Origin: a bacterium
GTDB taxonomy: Bacteria > Patescibacteriota > Patescibacteriia > UBA9570
Assembly (NCBI GenBank): GCA_030698395.1
Contig: JAUYKW010000025.1
Location: 68,179-132,178 of the forward strand
DNA: 64,000 nt
Reading direction: 5' to 3'
Numbering within the stretch: the first letter of the stretch is position 1; each line of letters opens with the position of its first letter. A program made the translations under genes and the position numbers. The notes beneath the pieces were generated by a model, which saw only the letters and a program-made list of their open reading frames with translations, was not told the origin of the DNA and made no database searches. Positions 4,231-36,839 of the stretch are shown here, one piece after another.

Positions 4231-5070
4231 TTATGATCTTAATTTCTTTAAAATCTTCACATCGTCAGGCCGACCCTCTGGCGGTGTTTCTAAAATAAAA
4301 TCCTGACCTTGTAATTTTGGATGATTTACTAAAAAACCCATACCTTCTTTACCAATATAACCCAACTTAATATGTTCGTGCCTATCCTTCTTACTGTTAA
4401 ACTCAACTTTAGAATCATTTACCTGAATTACTGCTAATTTTTTTAATCCAATATATTTGTCTAGCTGAGCAACTAATCCATCTACATCCTTTGCAGTGCG
4501 CATATCGTATCCAGATGCAAAAGCATGTTGAGTATCTAAACAAAATCCAACCTTTGATTTATTAATTTTAATACCCTTTGTTAATTCTGCGATCTCCTCA
4601 AAAGAACATCCTAAGATTTTTCCACTTCCTGCGGCATTCTCTAATAAAAGTTTGCAATCACCATCATAACCTTCCATAACTTGATTTAAACTTTGAATTG
4701 CAACATTAATAGCTTCTTCACGATCTGGCTGACTAGCAGCGCTTCCAGTATGAAACATAACGCCTGCAACTTTCAATCGTGATCCCCGATCTAGCTCCTG
4801 ACGTAGCATAGTAATCGAAGCGTGTCGGATTCTATTATCTGCTGATGCCAAATTAATCAAATATGGAGCATGAATATAATATTTCTCAAAACTATATTTT
4901 TTACAATTACTTATGAATTTCTCCACCATTTCATCGGTAAGTTCAGGACACTTATAAGTTTGTGGTGGACGTGAAAACATCTGAAAAGTTTCTAACTTTT
5001 CTTCATGCGCATTCAGCGGAGCATTAAATACTCCACCAGAACTAGATACATGTGCGCCAATTTTTATCAT
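4231..5070 (-). CDS. nfo: deoxyribonuclease IV (endonuclease IV, AP endonuclease family 2)
   Basis: Start chosen at MIKIGAHVSSSGG (canonical Nfo N-terminus) inside the longer listed ORF; HAPYLINLAS and TIM-barrel AP-endonuclease motifs. Confidence 0.8.
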   Translation of the reverse strand: MIKIGAHVSSSGGVFNAPLNAHEEKLETFQMFSRPPQTYKCPELTDEMVEKFISNCKKYSFEKYYIHAPYLINLASADNRIRHASITMLRQELDRGSRLKVAGVMFHTGSAASQPDREEAINVAIQSLNQVMEGYDGDCKLLLENAAGSGKILGCSFEEIAELTKGIKINKSKVGFCLDTQHAFASGYDMRTAKDVDGLVAQLDKYIGLKKLAVIQVNDSKVEFNSKKDRHEHIKLGYIGKEGMGFLVNHPKLQGQDFILETPPEGRPDDVKILKKLRS

Positions 5071-5149
5071 AAAAGTATTATAACACAACATTACATGGTA
5101 TAATTTTGTTATCATACGAATCTATTTATTAACCTAAATAATAATCATT

Positions 5150-6073
5150 ATGGCAGGTAAAGTAACAATAATTGGTGCAGGAAATGTTGGAACCGCATGC
5201 GCATACGCGTTAGCAACCGACGGCACTCCAAGTGAAGTAGTTTTATTAGATCGAAATCTTAGTAAAGCTCAAGGAGAAATTATGGACATTGAGCACGGCA
5301 ATGCTTTTCTACCATACACAGAATTTAAGGGGTCAAATAATTATAAAGACGTAGCTGGTTCTGATTTAGTTGTTATCACAGCTGGAGCTCCTCAAAAACC
5401 AGGTGAAACCAGATTAGATTTATTAGCAAAAAATGTCGCAATTTTAAAATCAATTGTTACCGAGGTAAAAAAACACGCACCAAATACCATCTTGCTTGTG
5501 GTAAGTAATCCCGTTGATGTATTAACTTTTTATGCAAAGAAATTTTCTGGATTTCCAAATCATCGTGTAATCGGTTCAGGCACTGTTTTAGATACTGCTC
5601 GATTTCGTTCTTACATTGCAAAAAAATATCATGTAAATGCTCACAATGTTCATGCTTACGTACTAGGTGAACATGGTGATAGCTCATTCCCAGCCATTAG
5701 CACTGCAAATGTTGGACCAGTACCACTCTCCAGTATGCCAGGCTATAAAGAATCCGACATTAAACAAATTCATCAAAAAGTTATAACTGTTGTGTACGAT
5801 ATCATTAAAAAGAAGGGCGCCACAAATTTAGCAATTGCAACCTGCGTCACTCAGTTAGTACGCGCTATCTTAAACGATACTCATGAAATATTTCCAGTAT
5901 CATCCGTATTAAATGGTGAATATGGTGTAAAGGATGTTTCTATTAGTACGCCAACCATATTAGGAAGAAAAGGAATCATTAGGGAATTAGAATTACCAAT
6001 GAATAAAGAAGAAAAAGCGGCATTTAAGAAATCTATCACGGTATTAAAGAAAGCCATCAAATTTGTTAAGTAG
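5150..6073 (+). CDS. ldh: L-lactate dehydrogenase (LDH/MDH family)
   Basis: Rossmann KVTIIGAGNVGTACAYALA, VVSNPVDVLT, and LDH-type catalytic loop LGEHGDS. Confidence 0.75.
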   Translation: MAGKVTIIGAGNVGTACAYALATDGTPSEVVLLDRNLSKAQGEIMDIEHGNAFLPYTEFKGSNNYKDVAGSDLVVITAGAPQKPGETRLDLLAKNVAILKSIVTEVKKHAPNTILLVVSNPVDVLTFYAKKFSGFPNHRVIGSGTVLDTARFRSYIAKKYHVNAHNVHAYVLGEHGDSSFPAISTANVGPVPLSSMPGYKESDIKQIHQKVITVVYDIIKKKGATNLAIATCVTQLVRAILNDTHEIFPVSSVLNGEYGVKDVSISTPTILGRKGIIRELELPMNKEEKAAFKKSITVLKKAIKFVK

Positions 6074-6080
6074 CTATAAT

Positions 6081-6119
6081 AAAAAGTAGGTACATGCCGA
6101 GCAAGTACCTACTTTTTTT
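6081..6119. terminator. bidirectional intrinsic terminator hairpin (AAAAAGTAGGTAC..GTACCTACTTTTTTT)
   Basis: 8-bp GC-containing stem GTAGGTAC/GTACCTAC flanked by A-run and T-run, between convergent ldh and tig; near-identical copy at 15872..15909. Confidence 0.6.
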
Positions 6120-6131
6120 AATACCGTATTT

Positions 6132-7481: not shown

Positions 7482-9506
7482 TTACGCTAGAAGCGCAACA
7501 ATTAGCAGAGCAACAATATTCAATACCTTAATCATAGGATTGATTGCTGGTCCTGCTGTATCCTTATATGGATCACCAACTGTATCTCCAGTAACAGCAG
7601 CTGCATGTGCATCTGATCCCTTACCACCATGATGTCCGTCCTCGATATATTTTTTAGCGTTGTCCCATGCACCACCACCAGTAGTCATAGCAATCGCCAT
7701 AAATATTCCAGTAACAATTGATCCCATCAAAACTCCACCTAGAGCAACTGGGCCCAAAGCGTACCAAACGATAAACGGTGTTAATACAGGAAACAATACC
7801 GGCAATACCATTTCTTTAATTGCTGCCTTTGTAACGATATCTACACAAACTGCATAATCAGGTTTTCCGGTACCTTCCATGATTCCTGGAATTTCTCTAA
7901 ATTGACGCCGTACTTCTTGTACTACTGCACCAGCTGCTTTTCCAACTGATTGCATACAAAGAGCTGAGAAGAAGTAAGTCACCATTCCACCAATTAACAA
8001 ACCAACGATCACTTTTGGATTCTCTAGTCCAAATGATAATACTTCACCAGTTGCACTAGTGTAATCCTCAGTATATGCCGCAAACAATACTAATGCTGCT
8101 AATCCAGCAGATCCAATTGCATATCCTTTAGTAACTGCTTTAGTAGTATTTCCAACAGCATCAAGTTTATCGGTAATTTCTCTCACATCCTCTGGCAAAT
8201 CAGCCATCTCTGCAATTCCTCCAGCATTATCTGTAATTGGTCCAAATGCATCAATGGTTACAATAATTCCAGCCATAGAAAGCATGGCCATTGCAGCTAT
8301 AGCAATTCCATATAATTCTGCAAAACCGTACGCACCTAAGATTGCCAAAACAATAATTAGCACTGGTGCGGCTGTTGATTTTAATGATACAGCTAATCCT
8401 TGAATTACGTTTGTACCATGTCCAGATTCAGAAGCAGCAGCAATTGATTTAACTGGCTTGTATTGGGTTGAAGTATAGTACTCAGTAATTACTACCAATG
8501 CAGCAGTCACACCCAAACCAATCAATGCAGAAAAATATAATTCATTTACAGTATATAATCCGTTCTCAGCCATTAACCATTTAGTCACGGGATAGAATAA
8601 TACAGCAGAAAGTAAACCAGCAGCGCCTAATCCTTTATACAACGCACCCATAATACTTTCCTTTTTGCCTAGTTTAATAAACCAAGTACCAATAATTGAA
8701 GTTATAATTGCAACAGCACCAATCGCTAACGGATATAGTAATGTACTTTCACGCACAGCATCACTTAATCCCATTTCCTTAGTAAATAATAAGGAAGCCA
8801 ATAACATTGCTGCTACAGAAGTAACTGCGTAAGTTTCGAATAAATCTGCAGCCATTCCTGCATCGTCTCCAACGTTATCTCCAACGTTATCAGCAATTAC
8901 AGCTGGATTTCGTGGATCGTCTTCTGGAATTCCAGCTTCTACCTTACCAACTAAATCTGCTCCAACATCTGCCGCTTTTGTGAAAATTCCTCCACCTACA
9001 CGAGCAAATACTGAAATTAAACTACCTCCAAAACCAAGTCCAATCAAAGCATCAATGTTACCGTCCATTATATAGTAAACTCCAGCCACACCAAGTAATC
9101 CAAGTCCAACTACCAAAATACCAGTAACAGTTCCACCTTGCACAGCTATTCCCATAGCTTTCTTTAATCCAGTTTTGGCTCCTTCTGCGGTTCGTACATT
9201 TGCTCTAACAGCAACGTTCATTCCAACATATCCAGCCAAAGCTGAAAGTACGGCTCCAATAGCAAATCCTATAGCCATTGGCATGTTTCCGAATACAAAC
9301 GCGAAAACTAAAAATAAAATTACCGCAACAACTGCGATTGTTTTATATTGTCGATTTAAATATGCCTTAGCACCATCTTGAATAGCTTTTGCGATTTCTC
9401 GCATTTTTTCGCTACCATCTGGGTTCTTTTTTACACGCGAAGCTAGTACTAGACCATATACAATGGCCACAACTGCCGTTATCAATGCAAATCCTAATGC
9501 TGTCAT
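7482..9506 (-). CDS. hppA: membrane-bound proton-translocating pyrophosphatase (H+-PPase), probably K+-independent type
   Basis: Canonical motifs [20 protein letters not shown], multi-TM; GNTTKA (Lys rather than Ala) suggests K+-independent subfamily. Confidence 0.9.
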
Positions 9507-11664: not shown

Positions 11665-11695
11665 GACGCCTTTTGTTTAAAATTGTGTTTCTTTT

Positions 11696-12283
11696 TTACT
11701 TTACGAAAATCAAACCCCAATGATATTGTCCGGCATCAAATTCTTCAATTAACTGCATCGACAATTCAGTTGCGTATCCTTTTATTTCTTCTGGATGAAC
11801 TCGCACTGCTTCTTCTGGGCCAAATGGAGCGCTAACACCTGGTTTCCAATCTACAACTGCTAATCGCGCACCTGGTTTCATCATCCGATATGTTTCTTGC
11901 ATTATCTTCATGCGTTGCTTTGATTGAAACAATGTTGTTACTAAAAACGCCACATCTAATGCATTGTCAGTTATCGCTCTAGTAGCTCCATAGATTTCTA
12001 AATTGCTCCAAACAGTTTGAACATTATTAATACCATGAACTTTAGCCTTCGTTGCAATTGTAGGCAAAATAGATTTTACAACATCAACTGCATAAGCTAT
12101 ACCATGCTCACCAACAATTCTTCCAGCGGAAAGAGCCATTCTACCCTCTCTACCAGTTCCTAAATCAGCAATGATATCCCCAGGTTTTACACCTGCTTTT
12201 TTAATAACTCCTGGCGCATCAATTATAATTGTATTATATGGCATATCACATATATTATATACCAAAGCGTTGAATCGGAGCAA
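11696..12283 (-). CDS. class I SAM-dependent methyltransferase (specificity unknown)
   Basis: Gly-rich SAM-binding motif DIIADLGTGREG followed by Rossmann-like beta strands; true start may be the internal MPYNTIIIDAPGV because the 5' end overlaps rnhB. Confidence 0.55.
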   Translation of the reverse strand: MLRFNALVYNICDMPYNTIIIDAPGVIKKAGVKPGDIIADLGTGREGRMALSAGRIVGEHGIAYAVDVVKSILPTIATKAKVHGINNVQTVWSNLEIYGATRAITDNALDVAFLVTTLFQSKQRMKIMQETYRMMKPGARLAVVDWKPGVSAPFGPEEAVRVHPEEIKGYATELSMQLIEEFDAGQYHWGLIFVK

Positions 12284-12851
12284 ACGACTTGCGATGTATC
12301 AAGTGGGGTTTGTAAATTTCTAATTGTTGTTCATGATATTTAGTTCCATAACCCTTATGCTTAGCGAATACAAATCTACCATCAAACATATCAAATCGTC
12401 GCATTAAACGATCGCGGACAACTTTGGCTATAATAGAAGCTGCACCAATGTTATAGCTTTTTGCATCTCCACCTATTACCTGTTCAGTTGGCACGAAATG
12501 TTCAATTTTAAAACCATCCACTAAAACGATATCTGGTACAACATCCAAATGAGTAATTGCATACGATAAAGCTAACTTATTTGCTTCATGAACACCAAGT
12601 GTATCAATCTCATTTTGATTTACACTCACCACTGCCCAACAGAGAGCTTGTTTGGTAATTAGTGGAAATAACTGTTCCCGCTTTCTTTCTGATATTTTCT
12701 TTGAATCTGTTATTCCAGATACTATTTTATTGGGCATAATAACTGCAGCGGCAACCAATGGACCAGCCCAAGCCCCTCTACCAGCTTCATCAACACCTGC
12801 AATCACTTTAAAACCATCTCTTTTAAACTTATTATCAATATTTATACCCAT
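12255..12851 (-). CDS. rnhB: ribonuclease HII
   Basis: AGVDEAGRGAWAGPLVAAAV catalytic N-terminus typical of RNase HII. Confidence 0.85.
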   Translation of the reverse strand: MGINIDNKFKRDGFKVIAGVDEAGRGAWAGPLVAAAVIMPNKIVSGITDSKKISERKREQLFPLITKQALCWAVVSVNQNEIDTLGVHEANKLALSYAITHLDVVPDIVLVDGFKIEHFVPTEQVIGGDAKSYNIGAASIIAKVVRDRLMRRFDMFDGRFVFAKHKGYGTKYHEQQLEIYKPHLIHRKSFAPIQRFGI

Positions 12852-12978
12852 ACTTGTATAATATAGTATTTTCTGGCATAATCCTATCCTGTGGAAATGT
12901 ACTTGCCAAAAGAAAATGGTATGATAAAGTATGATATTCTCTCAAATTACTAACATGGTATAATCCTAATCACAAAAA

Positions 12979-13815
12979 ATGACTAAACATATAGGAAAAG
13001 AACGACTCACGATTACAATGCGCAAGGATGTGCTGGCTTCTTTAGATAAATTCATTGATGGAAAAAAAATTCGTAATCGCTCGCATGCAATAGAATATAT
13101 TGTAGGACACTATCTTGGCGCAGGAATTGATACTTGTGTTATTTTAGCAGCTGGCAAAGAAGAACAAAGCACTAGTCCTCTTCTCAGAATTCAAAATAGA
13201 CCAGTAATTGCTTACACCATCGAATTACTCAGACAAGCCGGGATTCACAAAATTATATTAGTAACGAGCGGTGGCCGACAAGATCTCCAAAAATATCTTG
13301 GCGATGGATCACAGTGGAAAATAAATATTACTTATATTGAAGACTATAAAGGAACTGGCACAGCTCATTCACTTCATCTAGCAAAAGATTATATCAAAGA
13401 CACATTCATTCTTATGTATGGTGATATCTTGATAGATATTGACATTCAAGAAATAGTTAAATTTCACAAAGAACAAGATGATGTAATAAGCACAATGGCT
13501 GTAACTGGTTGTTCAAATATGTCTTTATATGGAGTAACTGAATTACAAGGCAGTAGAGTTTATCGAATCATAGAAAAGCCACAAGCCCACACAAAGAGTA
13601 ATCTAGTATATTCAGGCATGTCTGTGTGCGAGCCATCTTTATTAGACTATCTTGATATAAAAAATAAAAATTACATTACTCGCGATGTAATGCCAGATTT
13701 AGCTCATCGTGGCCAAGTTGCTGGTTATCCATTTACTGGGAAATGGTTTGATATTTCTCATCCAGAAGAGTATGAACTTGCACAGCAACAGTGGGCACAA
13801 ACCATGACGGACTAG
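12979..13815 (+). CDS. sugar-phosphate nucleotidyltransferase with N-terminal ribbon-helix-helix (CopG-like) domain
   Basis: Residues ~5-45 (ERLTITMRKDVLASLDKFI...RNRSHAIEYIV) fit the RHH beta-alpha-alpha pattern; remainder has the NTP_transferase motifs CVILAAGKEEQ...RP, LVTSGG, YGDILID. Confidence 0.65.
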   Translation: MTKHIGKERLTITMRKDVLASLDKFIDGKKIRNRSHAIEYIVGHYLGAGIDTCVILAAGKEEQSTSPLLRIQNRPVIAYTIELLRQAGIHKIILVTSGGRQDLQKYLGDGSQWKINITYIEDYKGTGTAHSLHLAKDYIKDTFILMYGDILIDIDIQEIVKFHKEQDDVISTMAVTGCSNMSLYGVTELQGSRVYRIIEKPQAHTKSNLVYSGMSVCEPSLLDYLDIKNKNYITRDVMPDLAHRGQVAGYPFTGKWFDISHPEEYELAQQQWAQTMTD

Positions 13816-13840
13816 TTAGGAGGGGGTCTGTCTTTTTTAG
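13813..13840 (+). terminator. putative intrinsic terminator of the nucleotidyltransferase gene
   Basis: GACGGAC..GTCTGTC imperfect stem followed by TTTTTT; marks the end of native low-GC sequence before the high-GC island. Confidence 0.35.
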
Positions 13841-14149
13841 TTGTCGGTATTTGGAACCAATATGGTTCTAAACATTGGCACACTAAAGTATTCCAACTGC
13901 AGTGTGTTCGCTCATTTTTTTTCTCATCAACATTCCCTCGCTAAGTTACAATCGTTACTGGCGAATAATCTGCTGTGCTTTGGAGGAAGTACAAGTACGT
14001 TACGACGTTTAAAAGATCCCCCCCCACACACAAAGCTTCAAACTCCCTTGGATAAGGAGTTGTTGACCTACCTCTCGGCTGATCCGGCCGCATGACATCA
14101 ATCGACGGAGACGAAATTGTCTGATCACTCAAACCCTCAGGAGGTTAAC

Positions 14150-15724
14150 ATGCCTGGAACCAAACCCGGTGCGAACACGCATCGGATCGAACCTGTCGAC
14201 ATGGACGGCGACCAGCTGTACGCCCATGCTGGCTTCCACGGACGCACTGCGGACGAGCTGCGACCCAAGCCCACGGAGAGCACCTGGACGCTTCCCAAGA
14301 GCGGACAGATCATCGCTGCTTGCGAGCCGGCTCTGCGCCTGCTCCGCCCGCTGGTGGACTACGCCAAGACCGAAGCCGCCGGCAACAAGCACGACCTGAC
14401 GCTCCTTCCGCTCGCTGTTGGCGAGTACGAAGGCCTGCCGCCCGAGATGGTGTACGGTCGCGCTAGTCGCGATATCCGCCATCACGAGCACTACACGCGC
14501 AACAGCCGGGGAGATGACCGTCTGCTGAAGTCCCACGCCCAGTGGCTGACCTACATGACCGGTGTCGACTACAGTCCCGAGGATATCCTGATCACCACCG
14601 GCGGCATTGGTGCTTGCCAGATCGTGATTCAGTTCCTCACCGATCCCGGCGACGAGATCTGCTTCGTCGAGCCCTCGTGGCCCAACTCCAAGGTGCTGGC
14701 CAAGTCCTACGGTCGCAAGGTGAGTACCCTTGTTCTGTCCCCCGAGGACAACTTCGGCCTGCCGCAGACAAGCCAGGAGTGGGAGGAGCGCGTGCCCAAG
14801 ACCGCCAAGGTCCTGTGGCTCGAGATGCCCTCCAACCCTTCCGGCTTCGGCTGGCGGAGTATGCAAGAGCGCGAAGTGGTAGCCGAGTTCGTGGCCAAGC
14901 GTGGTATCCTGCTGTTCGTGGACGAGGAGTATCGCCTCCTCTACGCTGATCAGCGCCCCAAGACGATCCTGAGCCTCGGCGCCCCGAACGTGATCGCTTC
15001 GTCGGCCTGGGACAAGACCCTGTGCATGACGAGCGCCCGCCTGGGCAGTCTCGAGACCGCCGATCCGAACATCCAGCGCCTCCTCCAGCCCCTCGGCAAC
15101 ACGCTGTTGTCCGCACCGAACTTCATGCGGCTCCAGCAGCACATCGCCGCGATCATGTACGACAAGACGACCTTCGGTGCCCTGGCCTACGTCGAAGGCC
15201 TCGCTGCCGAGATCGAAACCAACCGTGTCCTGACGGCCAAGGTGCTCAATGGCAGCATCGGCATCCACATGAAGGGCAATGCAGGATTCTACGATCCGTG
15301 GATCTTGCCGGAGCTCCGCTCGGGTGGCGCCATGCAGGCCCTCATGTTCAGCCTGGTGCAGCTCGCCCAGGACGAACGCGATGGCAAGCAGAGCGAGATC
15401 ACCGTGTTCTCCAACGCCGTGCCATGGGCCGGCTTCTACACCGACAAGACCGCGGCTCCCGAAGGATACCGGATCACGCTCGGGAGGTCCAAGGATCAGG
15501 GCCTCGCAACGGCGCTTCACGCCTTGCATGCGCAAGTCAGCCGATACATCCACGCGGGCCAGCCCTACATGGGTACGCCCAAGGAGGTGGTGACGCGCTT
15601 CCTGGCTGGCGAAAAGATCGAGCCCGGTGCATGGCCCGGAGAGAAGCGCTTCCACGCCGTCGGTGGACAGAGCGAGAGCGAGAGCGGGCAGGGCACGACC
15701 GTCCCCAAGGTCGAGGCCAGCTAG
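14150..15724 (+). CDS. class I (fold-type I) PLP-dependent aminotransferase-like protein, about 65% GC, compositionally foreign
   Basis: Strong RBS AGGAGG 6 nt before ATG 14150 (the listed ORF begins at an upstream TTG); aminotransferase motifs in order: ITTGGIGACQ...DPGDEI, NPSG, VDEEY, S-x-x-DK-(8)-R-LG (SAWDKTLCMTSARLG); N- and C-terminal extensions of unknown function; GC3 near saturation in contrast to the flanking about 35% GC genome. Confidence 0.7.
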   Translation: MPGTKPGANTHRIEPVDMDGDQLYAHAGFHGRTADELRPKPTESTWTLPKSGQIIAACEPALRLLRPLVDYAKTEAAGNKHDLTLLPLAVGEYEGLPPEMVYGRASRDIRHHEHYTRNSRGDDRLLKSHAQWLTYMTGVDYSPEDILITTGGIGACQIVIQFLTDPGDEICFVEPSWPNSKVLAKSYGRKVSTLVLSPEDNFGLPQTSQEWEERVPKTAKVLWLEMPSNPSGFGWRSMQEREVVAEFVAKRGILLFVDEEYRLLYADQRPKTILSLGAPNVIASSAWDKTLCMTSARLGSLETADPNIQRLLQPLGNTLLSAPNFMRLQQHIAAIMYDKTTFGALAYVEGLAAEIETNRVLTAKVLNGSIGIHMKGNAGFYDPWILPELRSGGAMQALMFSLVQLAQDERDGKQSEITVFSNAVPWAGFYTDKTAAPEGYRITLGRSKDQGLATALHALHAQVSRYIHAGQPYMGTPKEVVTRFLAGEKIEPGAWPGEKRFHAVGGQSESESGQGTTVPKVEAS

Positions 15725-15871
15725 CAGCAGCTAGCAACATGATGAGAAGAACTGCGCGGATTCCGCAGTAACATTTCCCTTTCCTAGGAGGAAACGGTTA
15801 GTAGATGAATCCACTACTAACCACCCCCCTGTGCGTTTCAAAAAATGGAACATACAGGAAGGTATATAAAC

Positions 15872-15909
15872 AAAAGTAGGTACATACCATGGCATGTACC
15901 TACTTTTTT
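15872..15909. terminator. bidirectional intrinsic terminator hairpin (AAAAGTAGGTACAT..ATGTACCTACTTTTTT)
   Basis: 10-bp stem with 8-nt loop, A-run/T-run flanks; between the high-GC gene and gdhA; same stem sequence as 6081..6119. Confidence 0.55.
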
Positions 15910-15924
15910 GTTAATTGCTAAATT

Positions 15925-17166
15925 CTACGCAATGCCTCTTGCAAGCATGGCTTCCTCAATTCGCTTGGCAGCAACAATATAAGCTGCCGTTCTCATGTCG
16001 CAACCATATCTATCCATGGTATCCCATACGGAATTAAATGAACTTACCATAATTGGTTCTAACTTCTGCAACACTTCTTTTTCTGTCCAATAATAATTGT
16101 AAGAATTTTGAACTTGCTCAAAGTAAGAAACTGTAACTCCACCGGCATTCGCAAGAATATCTGGCACAACTACAATACCCTTTCTAAATAATTTTTCATC
16201 TGCTTCTGGAGTGGTTGGTCCATTTGCCAATTCTACAATTGCACGTACTTTAATTTTACCTGCATTTTCTTTAGTAATTACATTTTCTAATGCAGCTGGA
16301 ACTAAAATATCACACTTCGTTGTTAAAATTTGTTCATTAGTAATATTCTTTGCTCCTGGAAAATCTGATACAGAACCAGTTTCTTGCTTATGCTTTTCAA
16401 TCTCAACTGGATCTAACCCTTTTTCATTTACAACACCGCCACGTGAATCTGATACAGCAATAACTTTATAACCTTTCTTAGTTAAAATTTTTGCCATATA
16501 AGCTCCAGCATTTCCGTAGCCTTGAATTGCAACTGTAGCTCCTTTTTTTAACTTTAGTTGCTTTGCTAATTCTAAAGTTACATACACACCACCCTGAGCT
16601 GTGGAATAACCTCTTCCTTCAGATCCACCAATACTTAATGGTTTGCCAGTAATCATTCCTGGAGCATGTTTAGCATGAATCTGTTCATATTCATCCATCA
16701 TCCAAGCCATGATCTGTGGAGTTGTATATACATCAGGTGCTGGAATATCTTTTTCTGGTCCAACATCATTCGCTAATCTACGCATAAATCCACGAGCTAG
16801 CTTTTCTAATTCAGTTTCAGATAATTTTTTTGGATCAACCTTAATTCCACCTTTACCTCCACCTAAAGGAATTCCAACTACTGCACATTTAAATGTCATC
16901 CAAAAAGATAATGCCTTTACCTCATGAATATCTGTTGCTGGATGAAATCTTATGCCTCCTTTATATGGTCCTCGTGAATCATCATATTGCACACGATATC
17001 CCTCAAAAACCTTCACCGATCCATCATCCATCCGAACTGGGATAGAAATATGAATTTCTCGCTTAGGAAATTGTAATCTTTCATGAACTGCAGGATCTAG
17101 CTCCATTAATTCGGCAGCTTTATTTAATTGTTGCAATCCTGATTTAAATGGGTTTACTTTAGCCAT
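15925..17166 (-). CDS. gdhA: NAD(P)-specific glutamate dehydrogenase
   Basis: KGGIRFHP, catalytic GGGKGG, dinucleotide-binding GYGNAGAY. Confidence 0.9.
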   Translation of the reverse strand: MAKVNPFKSGLQQLNKAAELMELDPAVHERLQFPKREIHISIPVRMDDGSVKVFEGYRVQYDDSRGPYKGGIRFHPATDIHEVKALSFWMTFKCAVVGIPLGGGKGGIKVDPKKLSETELEKLARGFMRRLANDVGPEKDIPAPDVYTTPQIMAWMMDEYEQIHAKHAPGMITGKPLSIGGSEGRGYSTAQGGVYVTLELAKQLKLKKGATVAIQGYGNAGAYMAKILTKKGYKVIAVSDSRGGVVNEKGLDPVEIEKHKQETGSVSDFPGAKNITNEQILTTKCDILVPAALENVITKENAGKIKVRAIVELANGPTTPEADEKLFRKGIVVVPDILANAGGVTVSYFEQVQNSYNYYWTEKEVLQKLEPIMVSSFNSVWDTMDRYGCDMRTAAYIVAAKRIEEAMLARGIA

Positions 17167-17206
17167 ATCTATTATTAGTTATTAATCAAGTGACCTTATT
17201 ATATAG

Positions 17207-18403
17207 TTACCCTTTATACTGTTCAAGGGCTAATCCTATTAACTCCAAAGAACGCTTTAAATCCTTCTCTTTTAGCATGAATGCCAATCTAACCTCCTGC
17301 TTACCCATACCTTTGCTAGCATAAAAACCGGCAGCTGGCGCAAGTAGTACTGTTTCATTTTTATCCTGAAATTTCTTTATCATCCATTCGGCAAAGATGT
17401 CTGCATCCTTCACAGGAAGACCAATCACAATATAGAATGCTCCCTCTGGTTTTGAAAAAGTTATACCTTTAATTTTCTTTAGCCCTTCATACACAACATC
17501 TCTTCGTTTCGCAAACTCCTTCACGAGCGGAGCTGTATATTTTTTTGGATTCTTTAGCATTGGTAACATCGCTTGCTGTTCAATGCTAGCAACAGACAAG
17601 CGTGCCATGCCCATTTTCAAAGACGCGGCAATGACATCTTTATTTTTACTCGCAATCACACCAATTCTAGCTCCACAAATATTAAACCTCTTCGATGCAC
17701 TATCCAAAACAATTGCTTGATTACGAATTTCTGGAAAATTCATGATTGAATAATGTTTGCTTTCAAAAGAAAACTCTCGATACACTTCATCCGATAATAC
17801 AAACAAATTATATTGTTTTGCAATCTTTACTAATCTGGTTAACTCTTGTTTTGTAAAAATTGTACCTGTAGGATTAGATGGATTGCAAATCAAAATTGCT
17901 TTTGTACGTTTGGTAATCTTACTTTTAATTTCAGCATCTGATGGTAAATGAAATCCATTATCAATACTTAACGTAACTGGTTTTAACTTCACGGTAGCTA
18001 AGGACGCAAATCCATTATAGTTTGTATAAAATGGTTCAAATACTAACACCTCGTCATTTGGATCACATACTGCCTGCATCGCAAAGATAATTGCTTCGGA
18101 TCCACCAGTGGTAACTACAATATCTTCCGATTTAAAATCAATATTATTTCTTTTGAAATATATAGACCAAGCATCCAAAGTGCTTTCCAAGCCATTTGAT
18201 GGTGCGTATGCAACTGTATCGGGTTTATAAGCCCGAACTGCCTTAAGAAAGTCTGGATGTGTTGGCAAATCTGGTTGACCAATGTTTAAGTGATAAACTT
18301 TTACACCTTTCTTTTTACGGTCCTCTGCTGCTGAAGCTAATTTTCTTAATGGCGAGGCCTGCATGTTTCCTGCTCTCTGCGATATTGGTGGTACTTTTTT
18401 CAT
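17207..18403 (-). CDS. class I/II pyridoxal-phosphate aminotransferase (aspartate/aromatic aminotransferase-like)
   Basis: NPSNPTG, SDEVY, SASKRFNICGARIG motifs. Confidence 0.8.
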   Translation of the reverse strand: MKKVPPISQRAGNMQASPLRKLASAAEDRKKKGVKVYHLNIGQPDLPTHPDFLKAVRAYKPDTVAYAPSNGLESTLDAWSIYFKRNNIDFKSEDIVVTTGGSEAIIFAMQAVCDPNDEVLVFEPFYTNYNGFASLATVKLKPVTLSIDNGFHLPSDAEIKSKITKRTKAILICNPSNPTGTIFTKQELTRLVKIAKQYNLFVLSDEVYREFSFESKHYSIMNFPEIRNQAIVLDSASKRFNICGARIGVIASKNKDVIAASLKMGMARLSVASIEQQAMLPMLKNPKKYTAPLVKEFAKRRDVVYEGLKKIKGITFSKPEGAFYIVIGLPVKDADIFAEWMIKKFQDKNETVLLAPAAGFYASKGMGKQEVRLAFMLKEKDLKRSLELIGLALEQYKG

Positions 18404-18431
18404 GCTTTCTGTTTGATTATTTAACTAAGAA

Positions 18432-19427
18432 TTAAGTTCTAATAAAATGATTATCATTACTTACTTTCCAATCCTGATCTATTTTTACTTCTTTACCATC
18501 AAGCTCCATTAAATATGTATAGCACTCCAGTGCAGCTTTGCAACCTTCCCCAGCCGATACTATTACTTGTTTATATTTCGATGTTGTTACATCACCAGCA
18601 GCAAAGACACCCACAGATGAAGTATGGCAAGTTTCATCCACAATAATTTCATTCTTTTTATTGAGCTCTACAATATTAGAAACAAATTTTACGGCAGACA
18701 TGAAGCCGGCATTAATAAAAACTGCATCCACTTCCAATTCTCTTGTTACATCGCTTTCTCCTTTTTGAGTAATAGTTATTTTTTGAACTTTGTCACTACC
18801 AATAATTTCCGCAACTTGAGCGTTTAAAACTTGCTCCACATTTGAAGATTCTTGCATAGATTTTACAAGCACTTCTTCAGCTCTAAAAGTATCACGACGA
18901 TGTATTAAAAAAACTTTTTTTGCAACTGAACCTAGTTCAATTGAAGTTTCTAATGCAGAATTACCACCTCCAACAACTGCTACATTCTTATTCTTCATTA
19001 AGTCTCGAACTCCAGCTGTTGAATGATAAACTCCCTTTCCAGATAATTGTTCTTCTCCAGGTACATTCAAGTTACGGGGAGTTAAACCAAATGCTAGTAC
19101 AATTGAACGACTAACCATAGTTTCGTTATTATATGTTGTTTCAAAATTACCATCAGACAATTTAGTAATTCCTTTAACTTCACCTAAAACAAATTCAGCA
19201 CCCTGATCTACAGCTTGCTGTTTGAATCTCTGCATTAGCTCTGCGCCATCTACCGCTCCTACTCCTGGATAATTTTCAATCACAGACGTACTTGCCGCTT
19301 GTCCACCAACGTCCTTGCTTATAATTACTGTGCTCAAAGAACGACGTGCACAATATAGCGCCGCACTTAAACCTGCTGGTCCACCACCAACTATAACAAC
19401 ATCATACATAATAGAATGTGATGTCAA
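18432..19427 (-). CDS. thioredoxin-reductase-like FAD/NAD(P)-binding flavoprotein lacking the CxxC redox centre
   Basis: VVIVGGGPAGLSAA and VAVVGGGNSALE dinucleotide motifs and TrxB architecture, but the position of CATCDG reads HSTAGVRD (no cysteines); translationally adjacent to trxA. Confidence 0.7.
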   Translation of the reverse strand: MTSHSIMYDVVIVGGGPAGLSAALYCARRSLSTVIISKDVGGQAASTSVIENYPGVGAVDGAELMQRFKQQAVDQGAEFVLGEVKGITKLSDGNFETTYNNETMVSRSIVLAFGLTPRNLNVPGEEQLSGKGVYHSTAGVRDLMKNKNVAVVGGGNSALETSIELGSVAKKVFLIHRRDTFRAEEVLVKSMQESSNVEQVLNAQVAEIIGSDKVQKITITQKGESDVTRELEVDAVFINAGFMSAVKFVSNIVELNKKNEIIVDETCHTSSVGVFAAGDVTTSKYKQVIVSAGEGCKAALECYTYLMELDGKEVKIDQDWKVSNDNHFIRT

Positions 19428-19751
19428 TTATGCCATGGACTCATCCAAGGCTGCTTTGAGATCTTCCTTTGATTGTACACCAACCATTTGCTTCACTGGT
19501 TCACCGTCCTTAAAAACAATCAATGTAGGAACGCTCATAATTTGATATTGACCAGGAGTCTGCTCATTTGCATCCACCTCTAACTTTGCAATTTTTACAC
19601 CTTTATCTTTATACTCCTCAGCTACCTCTTCAACGATAGGTGATAACATTTTGCATGGTCCACACCAACTTGCCCAAAAATCAACCAGCACAGGAACATC
19701 AGATTCTAATACCTCTTTTTTAAAATTGTCATCTGTTAACTCTAATACCAT
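19428..19751 (-). CDS. trxA: thioredoxin
   Basis: WASWCGPCK active site, about 107 aa. Confidence 0.85.
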   Translation of the reverse strand: MVLELTDDNFKKEVLESDVPVLVDFWASWCGPCKMLSPIVEEVAEEYKDKGVKIAKLEVDANEQTPGQYQIMSVPTLIVFKDGEPVKQMVGVQSKEDLKAALDESMA

Positions 19752-35441: not shown

Positions 35442-36839
35442 ATGGATTCAAAACAGTTATGGGAAGCCTGCTTAGGAGAGTTAGAACTTTCTTTAACCAA
35501 GGCAAATTTTACAACCTGGTTTAAAAACACATTCATTTTAGAATATCAAGAATCTTCTGTGATTGTAGGAGTGCCAAACGCTTTTACAAAAACTTGGATG
35601 GAAAATAAATACCACCATAAAATACTAGATTCACTTCAAAGTATTACCGAAGATAAAATTAAACAGGTTTCTTTTAAAGTAGCACCTATCAGTAAACAAG
35701 AAACTTTTTTAGTAGATAAAGAAGCTGAGGAAGAAGAAAAAATTGAAGCCAAACCTATTTCCGAACCTATAATTACACAAGCTCCAGTTGCTACATTTAA
35801 AACAACAGCTCCAAAGGACTCAGATTTAAATCCTAGATATCTATTCGATTCTTTTGTAGTAGGAAAAAAATCTGAACTTGCTCACGCAGCATGTAGAGCT
35901 GTTAGTGAAAATCCAGCAACAATTTACAATCCATTGTTTATTTACGGCGGTGTAGGATTAGGAAAAACTCATTTAATGCAAGCTGTTGGCAATGAAATAC
36001 ATGCTCGCGCTCAAAAAAAGAAAGTTTTATACACACCTTGTGAAACATTCACTAATGAATATATCAAATCAGTGACAATGGGTAAGGCAGATACTTTTAA
36101 AGATAAATATCGCTCTGTAGATGTGTTGTTAGTAGATGACATTCAGTTCCTTGCTGGCAAAGAGGGCACTCAAGAAGCCTTCTTTCACACCTTCAACTTC
36201 TTACATCAAAATGATAAACAAATTGTTATTAGTTCTGATCGTCCTCCAAAGGCAATTCCTACATTAGAAGACCGTTTAGTATCACGTTTTGAATGGGGAA
36301 TGATAGTTGATATTGGTGCGCCAGATCTAGAAACGAGAATCGCGATTTTGCGAAGTAAATGTGAAAGTAAAAAAGTTAATATTGATGATGAAATAATTAC
36401 CCACATCGCAAAGACTGTCCAAAATAATATCAGAGAATTAGAAGGAGCTTTAAATAGAGTAATTGCCGCAACTCAATTAACAAACGTTCAACCAACTATT
36501 GAAAGTGTAAAAGGTTTATTATCTGGAATAATACAGTCTCCTAAACGCAGTGCTATCACGGGAAAACAAATTATATTAGCTGTCTCTGAATATTATGATA
36601 TTTCTATTGAAAATTTAGTTGGTAGTTCTAGGAAAAAAGGATTGGTAGTGCCCCGACAAATATCTATGTATATTATGCGCGAAGAAATGAGTGCCTCTTA
36701 TCCAGCAATCGGAAGTGAAATTGGTGGACGTGATCACACTACTGCAATGCATGCTTACAATAAAATAAAAAATGAAGTGGTTGAGAATGAAAAACTATCT
36801 CAAGACATCTCATTAATAAAACAAAAACTATACGCTTAG
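35442..36839 (+). CDS. dnaA: chromosomal replication initiator DnaA
   Basis: AAA+ Walker A GGVGLGKTHL, sensor motifs, C-terminal HTH domain IV. Confidence 0.9.
   Translation: MDSKQLWEACLGELELSLTKANFTTWFKNTFILEYQESSVIVGVPNAFTKTWMENKYHHKILDSLQSITEDKIKQVSFKVAPISKQETFLVDKEAEEEEKIEAKPISEPIITQAPVATFKTTAPKDSDLNPRYLFDSFVVGKKSELAHAACRAVSENPATIYNPLFIYGGVGLGKTHLMQAVGNEIHARAQKKKVLYTPCETFTNEYIKSVTMGKADTFKDKYRSVDVLLVDDIQFLAGKEGTQEAFFHTFNFLHQNDKQIVISSDRPPKAIPTLEDRLVSRFEWGMIVDIGAPDLETRIAILRSKCESKKVNIDDEIITHIAKTVQNNIRELEGALNRVIAATQLTNVQPTIESVKGLLSGIIQSPKRSAITGKQIILAVSEYYDISIENLVGSSRKKGLVVPRQISMYIMREEMSASYPAIGSEIGGRDHTTAMHAYNKIKNEVVENEKLSQDISLIKQKLYA

Follow-up and report, generated by a model that had tools for sequence, protein, structure and literature searches.

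How does a gene of 64.0% GC come to lie, alone and complete, in a stretch of DNA that is otherwise 36.0% GC? The question is raised by the 64-kb stretch of DNA analysed here (the window; positions 68,179 to 132,178 of the Patescibacteria contig JAUYKW010000025.1), in which a GC-rich island carries a single open reading frame (ORF) on the + strand at 14150..15724. An earlier note on this DNA had described the ORF as an intact, functional-looking aminotransferase gene of foreign composition and probably recent acquisition, and the follow-up reported here supports that description. The explanation we favour, with a probability of about 0.68, is that a recent integration brought in about 1.8 kb of foreign DNA with a single complete gene, from a high-GC donor not yet sampled, and that the product works in glutamate/aspartate-linked transamination. 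That this copy was acquired recently and horizontally is almost certain.

The composition of the island was examined along the sequence and by codon position. The GC content climbs from 36-40% to 60-67% across about 14050-15750 and is back at 36% by 15850, and so the jump over the whole ORF and the return at the terminator of the glutamate dehydrogenase gene (gdh) are as the earlier note had described them. No other 1-kb bin of the window exceeds 40% GC, and the GC-rich patch is unique in the window. The GC contents at the first, second and third codon positions (GC1, GC2 and GC3) of the ORF were 63.2%, 45.5% and 83.2%, respectively; this GC3 is high but it is short of the near saturation that had been claimed. 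Elsewhere in the window there are 46 ORFs that reach 150 aa, with a GC3 of 0.25 +/- 0.03, and the island ORF was 19 standard deviations (SD) higher. The tetranucleotide correlation between the island and the remainder of the window was -0.58, while that of the other 1.6-kb windows was 0.90 +/- 0.03. The compositional comparison that had been proposed as a check, made here with the rest of the window, came out clearly, and by GC3 (z = 19) and by tetranucleotides (r = -0.58) the composition departs from that of the host genome as that of an acquired islet does.

The limits of the island needed some revision. It had been taken to start at 13841, and while the stretch of about 14018-15830 (about 1.8 kb) is clearly foreign, the left flank, 13841-14017, does not exceed 36-46% GC and is possibly spacer of native origin. 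On the right the limit of the island is the terminator palindrome at 15872-15907. C runs of 6 nt or longer occur only three times in the window, and two of them bracket the island, a C8 tract at 14018-14025 and a C6 tract at 15824-15829, coinciding exactly with the start and the end of the GC excursion. These border runs could be recombination microhomology or chance occurrences in GC-rich DNA.

The product, which is identical to NCBI MDP3971028.1 from a 141-kb contig, is predicted from its sequence to be a catalytically complete class-I (fold-type I) pyridoxal phosphate (PLP) aminotransferase of the dimeric type. It belongs to PF00155 (Aminotran_1_2) with 83.2 bits against a gathering cut-off of 19.7 (E = 2.7e-23). 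All NCBIfam models scored far below their cut-offs, the best relevant one being NF005744/PRK07568, an aspartate aminotransferase (AspAT) subfamily from which the protein is excluded by its 100.9 bits against a cut-off of 389, whereas the native AspAT encoded nearby scores 537.7 bits. In an alignment of the island protein with six homologs and this native AspAT, the residues N179, N229-P230, D258-E-E-Y261, K289 (the catalytic Lys), R297 and R441 were invariant in the family, and so were Y115 and G121 of the N-terminal phosphate/substrate loop. N229, which in the island protein begins an N229-P-S-G motif, D258, Y261, K289 and R297 align with the native AspAT, and R441, the small-domain Arg for the alpha-carboxylate, matches the Arg in the V-R-L-A-F segment of that enzyme. 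The Schiff-base Lys, the Asp for the pyridine N, the Asn and Tyr for O3' and the phosphate Arg stand in the canonical order, in agreement with the earlier note, and all the residues for PLP chemistry on an alpha-amino acid appear to be present. The perfect AGGAGG ribosome-binding site (RBS) that had been noticed is also there, at 14139-14144. An antisense ORF of 508 aa was considered as a gene and rejected as it has no family support and the + frame is conserved in seven homologs. It was this antisense ORF (L165:2454-3980) that the Logan gene caller chose over the aminotransferase frame, and because of this the aminotransferase is hidden from exact-product look-ups.

In a profile search of the PDB the top match was the AspAT TM1698 (2gb3; E = 8e-39), and the alignment with it begins already at the N-arm motif E-P-A-L-R-L-L-R-P. 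An AlphaFold (AF2) model was obtained with a mean pLDDT of 77 and a pTM of 0.80. In Foldseek the best match of the model was again 2gb3 (E = 4e-21, TMt 0.80), with 5bj4 at a TMt of 0.82 and a root-mean-square deviation of 3.8, and on 2gb3 and the Thermus and Pyrococcus AspATs the TMt ranged from 0.75 to 0.82. As modelled, the complete aminotransferase fold, large and small domain, spans residues ~55 to ~470 and therefore the true additions are only ~55 aa per end. The extensions of 110 aa at the N-terminus and 170 aa at the C-terminus that the earlier note had proposed were oversized because the domain limits had been taken from motif positions alone, and they are mostly ordinary small-domain and N-arm sequence left unaligned by Pfam. 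The C-terminal part consists of a helix, residues 452-485, with the conserved motif Y-I-x-A-G-Q-P-x-Y-G-T, and a disordered tail of ~27 aa, residues 498-524.

The two-domain fold is common to the island protein, TM1698 (2gb3; NF005744/PRK07568) and the Thermus thermophilus AspAT (1bjw) of class-I subgroup Ib/I-gamma, and the TM1698-type AspATs also have in common with it the N-arm E-P-x-L/I-R-x-L-x-P and the active-site Asn, Asp-x-x-Tyr, Lys, phosphate Arg and C-terminal carboxylate Arg. However, the island protein is only ~22% identical to them, it adds ~55 N-terminal residues and the conserved C-terminal helix (Y-I-x-A-G-Q-P-x-Y-G), and it has VGEYEALPP where they have IGQPDxxTP and W-D-K where they have S-x-S-K. 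Its subfamily is a distant relation of the PRK07568/TM1698 AspAT group.

This subfamily is very rare, and of roughly 15 billion proteins about nine belong to it. The search of 5.8e9 protein clusters returned only the island protein and three relatives of 48-50% identity. When 1.84e9 representatives were searched in full with HMMER, only five more sequences or fragments exceeded 110 bits; P0041, P0042, P0043 and the fragment P0044 were gained in this way, after which the scores fell from 114 bits to less than 98 bits, the level of ordinary aminotransferases. The best homolog anywhere in these two collections has 50% identity. A metagenome scan gave no further family members, and none was found on the viral contigs, phages and plasmids searched. 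Five sequences of 32-33% identity (L005-L009) were rejected as members as they are ordinary aminotransferases, native in 46%-GC contigs, and are without the C-terminal part.

The loci that carry the gene differ widely in composition. In L001 and L002 the gene has 42% and 38% GC in contigs of 37% and 34%, respectively, and in both loci (L001:8632-12533 and L002:4646-8211) a divergent TrmB-like regulator gene lies upstream and aspS lies 38 nt downstream. This aspS encodes a bacterial-type AspRS without the insertion domain, and in L001 AsnA and AsnRS are found 7 kb upstream. In L003 the gene has 60.6% GC and a GC3 of 74-75% in a contig of about 38% GC, with AspAT and glutamate dehydrogenase (GDH) genes directly downstream, and L163 is a 3' fragment with a GC3 of 55%, followed by AT-rich DNA and an AspAT gene. 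The gene in L160 has 67% GC and a flank that drops to 41%, with no informative flanking gene on a 2-kb contig; that in L159 has 68% GC and no flanking gene on a 1.7-kb contig, and so these high-GC members are known only on contigs of 2 kb or less. Finally, L161/L162 has a uniform 51.5% GC that looks native and a thioesterase gene upstream. In a neighbour-joining tree rooted on the native AspAT, the window copy falls together with those of L001, L002 and L003 (100% bootstrap); L159 branches off just outside this clade, and the basal positions are taken by L160 and L161.

The relatives of the host show where the gene is missing. The window GDH is closest to those of two Patescibacteria metagenome-assembled genomes (MAGs), L079 (JAJRVJ010000030), from a study of Southwest Indian Ridge vents (PMC9769843), and L080 (JAZDOC010000002). 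In L079 the GDH, AspAT and TrxR are 78%, 79% and 62% identical to those of the window, and in L080 the GDH and AspAT are 73% and 59% identical. By AspAT and GDH identity the window groups with L079, and L003 with L080 and also L163. The order TrxR-AspAT-GDH is common to all these genomes, and L079 and L080, species-level representatives of 73-78% GDH identity that are not conspecific with the window, keep this order and lack the island gene. In L080 a low-GC lipoprotein-like gene follows GDH. In the window the island gene stands after GDH and convergent with it, whereas in L003 and L163 the gene stands before AspAT and in the same direction. Since the gene is on opposite sides of the pair in two lineages, each of which has a gene-free relative, there were either two insertions or one insertion followed by a rearrangement and two losses. 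An inversion of AspAT-GDH between the window and L003 was considered and ruled out as TrxR-AspAT-GDH is fixed in L079 and L080. The earlier note had held that a high-GC homolog at the same position in related low-GC genomes would count against a recent acquisition. Such homologs are indeed present beside AspAT-GDH in L003 and L163, but they are on the other side of the pair and the closest relatives of the window are without the gene, and because of this recent acquisition remains the best reading for the window copy.

Other GC-rich genes were seen at these loci. In L079 a high-GC ORF (L079:11461-12579, - strand; 68% GC, GC3 90%) occupies the site of the island, directly after GDH and convergent. 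It encodes 355-372 aa with the motifs NPEG / FDEVY / T-K...W-R and a marginal PF00155 match, lacks the N-terminal third of the fold, and has no homolog in the 5.8e9 protein clusters. As an ortholog of the island gene it was rejected (hhalign probability 0.6%, no homologs), the likeness to aminotransferases being in the motifs only. The 7.5-kb contig of L003 holds, in L003:1-6130, three GC-rich genes among native genes of 36-40% GC, namely a partial gene (2-103), the aminotransferase gene (521-2014) and a gene for a MopE-repeat protein (4909-6045). Between them lie spacers of 14-24% GC that contain sigma-70-like promoters, including a perfect TTGACA-N17-TATAAT ahead of the MopE gene, and the aminotransferase and MopE genes are equal in GC (60.5%) and in GC3 (75%). 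L163, from a landfill metagenome, is the positional ortholog of the L003 aminotransferase gene (L163:1-1013 versus L003:1745-2300), with a homologous 3' flank and AspAT promoter region, an AspAT 85.5% identical and an aminotransferase fragment 60% identical.

How recent the acquisition was can be estimated from the codon positions. The regressions of Lawrence and Ochman relate the GC contents of the three codon positions, and by them GC1, GC2 and GC3 of the island ORF look like those of an unameliorated gene from a donor genome of ~68% GC. In a two-rate decay model with an equilibrium GC3 of 0.25 and a start at 0.90, the value observed for L159, L160 and the ORF of L079, a fall in GC3 to 0.83 corresponds to about 0.04 synonymous substitutions per site (dS) in native genes. 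Between the native genes of the window and L079, synonymous sites are saturated (proportion of synonymous differences, pS, 0.72-0.83), and therefore the window copy is much younger than that split. The L001 and L002 copies, on the other hand, have a GC3 of 29-39% and are fully ameliorated, and as they are at host equilibrium they are old residents. Between these two copies dS is 1.94 and the nonsynonymous rate (dN) is 0.15, and the resulting dN/dS of about 0.08 indicates that the family is under purifying selection.

A probable sequence of events is as follows. DNA from an organism that has a GC content of about 66-70% and has yet to be sampled, possibly the DNA of a host, would have been taken up by natural transformation and then integrated by illegitimate recombination, roughly at 14018-15830. 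The recipient would be the low-GC genome of an ultra-small bacterium of the Patescibacteria type, and the site a dispensable gap in which the terminators of two native genes in convergent orientation face each other. Illegitimate integration into this gap is the simplest account. No integrase or transposase gene was found within about 8 kb on either side, as the earlier note had stated, nor a tRNA near the island; terminal inverted or direct repeats were limited to chance-level matches of 11-13 nt, and the two inverted-repeat pairs near the borders are not colinear. Except for the C8 and C6 tracts at its borders, the island is thus without the hallmarks of mobility (integrase, tRNA target and flanking repeats). 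It has been reported that horizontal gene transfer into Patescibacteria is common (PMC12455944) and that Saccharibacteria are naturally competent and grow on high-GC Actinobacteria (PMC10633639), which by analogy makes this route of entry plausible but is no demonstration of it here. With the horizontally acquired islets described in Patescibacteria (PMC12455944) the island has in common the foreign GC and tetranucleotide signature, the patchy presence and the metabolic cargo. Unlike those islets, it is a single gene without tRNA, integrase or repeats, it has no donor in very large databases, its GC contrast of 28 points is extreme, and foreign aminotransferase-like genes recur around one native pair, AspAT-GDH.

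As to function, the gene context is consistent. In each of the five loci whose flanks are informative, it is Asp/Glu genes that the gene adjoins, which are AspAT and GDH in the window and L003, AspAT in L163, and aspS in L001 and L002; for the window, this bears out the neighbourhood of amino-group metabolism that had been pointed out. From this recurrent neighbourhood we propose, as most likely, a glutamate/2-oxoglutarate-linked transaminase that acts on aspartate/oxaloacetate or a related acid, although the divergent VGEYEALPP loop and W-D-K may leave several specificities possible. The enzyme would then transfer amino groups between glutamate/2-oxoglutarate and an aspartate-family or related keto acid and complement the native GDH-AspAT nitrogen node.

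Several observations weigh against this explanation. That the low-GC-hosted copies form one clade is easier to reconcile with circulation inside the lineage than with separate imports from unrelated donors. Neither a donor nor a genome resembling one was found, and the members with informative flanks are all in a low- or mid-GC context. The promoter scan called no promoter for the island gene, the leader 14026..14149 being without a sigma-70-like call on the + strand. At the right junction, which lies in a 36-nt palindrome within which both Logan contigs break, L165 and L164 overlap by only 19 nt. The L003 and L163 orthologs keep a GC3 of 74% and 55% although dS of the adjacent AspAT is about 1.25, and a simple model that starts from 100% GC3 predicts ~0.43 for L003 and L163 (from 88 codons and with the rough NG86 estimator), so that their GC decayed more slowly than a simple neutral amelioration model predicts. 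On a rival reading the family would belong to these ultra-small bacteria, and the gene would be a long-term resident in which high GC is actively maintained in AT-rich genomes by some force, such as GC-biased repair at a recombination hotspot, selection on mRNA or codons, or repeated allelic re-seeding. The monophyly of the four low-GC-hosted copies, the values of L003 and L163 with their homologous 3' flank, and the absence of a natively high-GC genome with the family among about 15 billion proteins favour it, and so do the product of the residual GC3 excesses of L003 and L163, which is at least 5x the neutral expectation, and L160, likewise a 67%-GC gene with a flank dropping to 41%. However, the nearest relatives of the window are without the gene, and L001 and L002 are fully ameliorated, which means that there is no universal GC-keeping force on the family; the L163 estimate comes from 88 codons with rough NG86 and the two-rate model, and no mechanism is known that gives 83% GC3 in one gene with such sharp boundaries. 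We therefore regard maintained GC as unlikely. It is a little harder still to believe that the island is inert foreign DNA with an unexpressed or non-functional ORF that has yet to decay. Consistent with inert DNA are the lack of a recognisable promoter, a codon usage about maximally distant from that of the host, and the analogous L079 ORF, which is an N-terminally truncated orphan; but the frame is intact over 524 codons with a strong RBS, the catalytic and PLP-binding residues are all kept in members of 32-50% identity, the L001-L002 dN/dS of about 0.08 shows purifying selection on the family, and the gene is retained in conserved functional neighbourhoods.

The earlier note had also raised a gene cassette and an assembly chimera, and both fared poorly. 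A mobile cassette (an integron attC cassette, a small transposon or cargo borne by a miniature inverted-repeat transposable element) inserted by a site-specific recombinase would fit a single gene that looks promoter-less, with a structured 3' flank, C8 and C6 tracts at its borders, and a different foreign ORF that occupies this site in the closest relative, L079. A single, apparently promoter-less ORF with a structured 3' element is also what the island has in common with integron cassettes, but it has no attC core sites, integrase or cassette array and does not qualify as one. There is no GTTRRRY/RYYYAAC core in 13841-14149 or 15725-15873, no terminal inverted or direct repeat beyond the C runs, no integrase or transposase within the 8 kb searched on each side and no family member on viral contigs, phages or plasmids, and the flanks are not conserved between family loci; a cassette is thus very improbable. 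Least probable of all is a chimera of assembly or binning, in which a low-GC contig received high-GC DNA of a second organism in silico. The composition switch is extremely sharp and the right junction is inside a palindrome of the kind at which unitig assemblies break, yet an internal insertion needs two chimeric joins only 2 kb apart. Moreover, in Logan contigs of run SRR13727534, which were made with a different assembler, window positions 11676-15901 (L165) and 15883-19731 (L164) are found at 100% identity, and L165 has the left junction and the whole island and reaches the native-type terminator. A similar mosaic, with homologous or analogous high-GC genes, is present at the same gene cluster of related genomes in other samples and from other assemblers (L003, L163 and L079).

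The features of the locus are given in the table below.

Table. Features in and around the GC-rich island, in window coordinates
Feature	Position	Strand	Evidence or remark
Sugar-1-phosphate nucleotidyl-transferase gene, native	12979..13815	+	36% GC, GC3 25%; Pfam NTP_transferase 6.4e-31; NCBIfam
Terminator-like hairpin and T-run closing the nucleotidyl-transferase gene	13813..13840	+	Sequence reading; consensus scan gave no call
Spacer, 36-46% GC, origin native or imported	13841..14017	.	50-nt GC profile
C8 tract, possible left edge of the foreign DNA	14018..14025	+	GC starts rising here
GC-rich 5' leader	14026..14149	+	RBS AGGAGG 14139-14144, 5 nt ahead of ATG
Coding sequence, 524 aa, predicted divergent class-I PLP aminotransferase	14150..15724	+	Catalytic Lys289 codon 15014-15016
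Antisense shadow ORF, 508 aa, not a gene	14129..15655	-	Artefact of high GC
Structured 3' flank, four consecutive hairpins, C6 tract 15824-15829	15725..15871	+	RNA fold
Native bidirectional terminator palindrome, common to gdh	15872..15907	.	Terminator scan, both strands
Glutamate dehydrogenase gene (gdh), native, convergent with the island gene	15925..17166	-	Pfam ELFV_dehydrog 1.2e-81
PRK07568-type aspartate aminotransferase gene, native	17207..18403	-	NCBIfam NF005744 537.7 bits, cut-off 389

The two native neighbours are convergent as had been described, the nucleotidyl-transferase gene on the + strand and gdh on the - strand, and Pfam supports both identities. The spacer to the left of the island is unremarkable in its fold (z = -1.6), has no similarity to any of the fetched loci, and contains the palindrome GAACCA-ATA-TGGTTC at 13854-13868, just where the earlier note had placed it. 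The leader is not conserved among the family loci. The 3' flank folds with -44.7 kcal/mol (z = -4.9), and no GTTRRRY core was found in it; it probably serves as the gene's own terminator or stabiliser. Rfam gave no match (E <= 1) in either flank. The terminator at 15872-15907 is 84% similar to the native terminator at 6075-6123, and these closely similar palindromes (AAAAGTAGGTAC...GTACCTACTTTT) have a related one at L001:1-27. This recurring palindrome may be a lineage-specific terminator or an element like the repetitive extragenic palindromic (REP) sequences.

The neighbours on the two sides of the island also include genes for trigger factor, H+-PPase, NusA, YraN, a methyltransferase, RNase HII, TrxR and CorC and a YggS-like gene. 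Leaving the island aside, the tetranucleotide correlation is lowest over the H+-pyrophosphatase region (7482-9506, - strand; r = 0.71-0.79), which is probably due to membrane-protein composition rather than foreign origin. The dnaA gene (35442-36839, + strand) is ~20 kb from the island and the cumulative GC skew turns at 20-36 kb, which places the island fairly near the presumed replication origin. In a Gracilibacteria chromosome fetched via GDH (L081:1-21224) the GC content steps from 21-25% over the 10 kb that precede GDH to 30-40% from that gene on.

The class of the enzyme and the phenomenon of a compositionally foreign single-gene islet are already known, and the enzyme is a new member of a very rare subfamily. 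What the locus offers is a clean and well-bounded case of recent single-gene horizontal acquisition by a bacterium with a reduced genome, in which GDH and AspAT, a minimal node for the handling of nitrogen, gain a transaminase. An uncharacterised subfamily of aminotransferases, extremely rare and with terminal elements of its own, is defined as well, and the consistent Asp/Glu gene context gives a functional hypothesis that can be tested. A more speculative idea, for which the odds are rather low, is that the AspAT-GDH locus of these ultra-small bacteria is a preferred landing pad for foreign, GC-rich aminotransferase-like genes from a hidden pool of a partner or host, or that some copies are actively held GC-rich over long periods in the face of the AT-biased mutation of the host; such a pool would be essentially absent from public data. 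If this is true, the orphan ORF of L079, the orthologs that persist GC-rich and the missing high-GC home genome could point to the partners of these episymbionts or to non-neutral GC retention, and the tiny family would either trace the organism with which uncultured Patescibacteria are physically associated or be a case of gene-specific GC maintenance.

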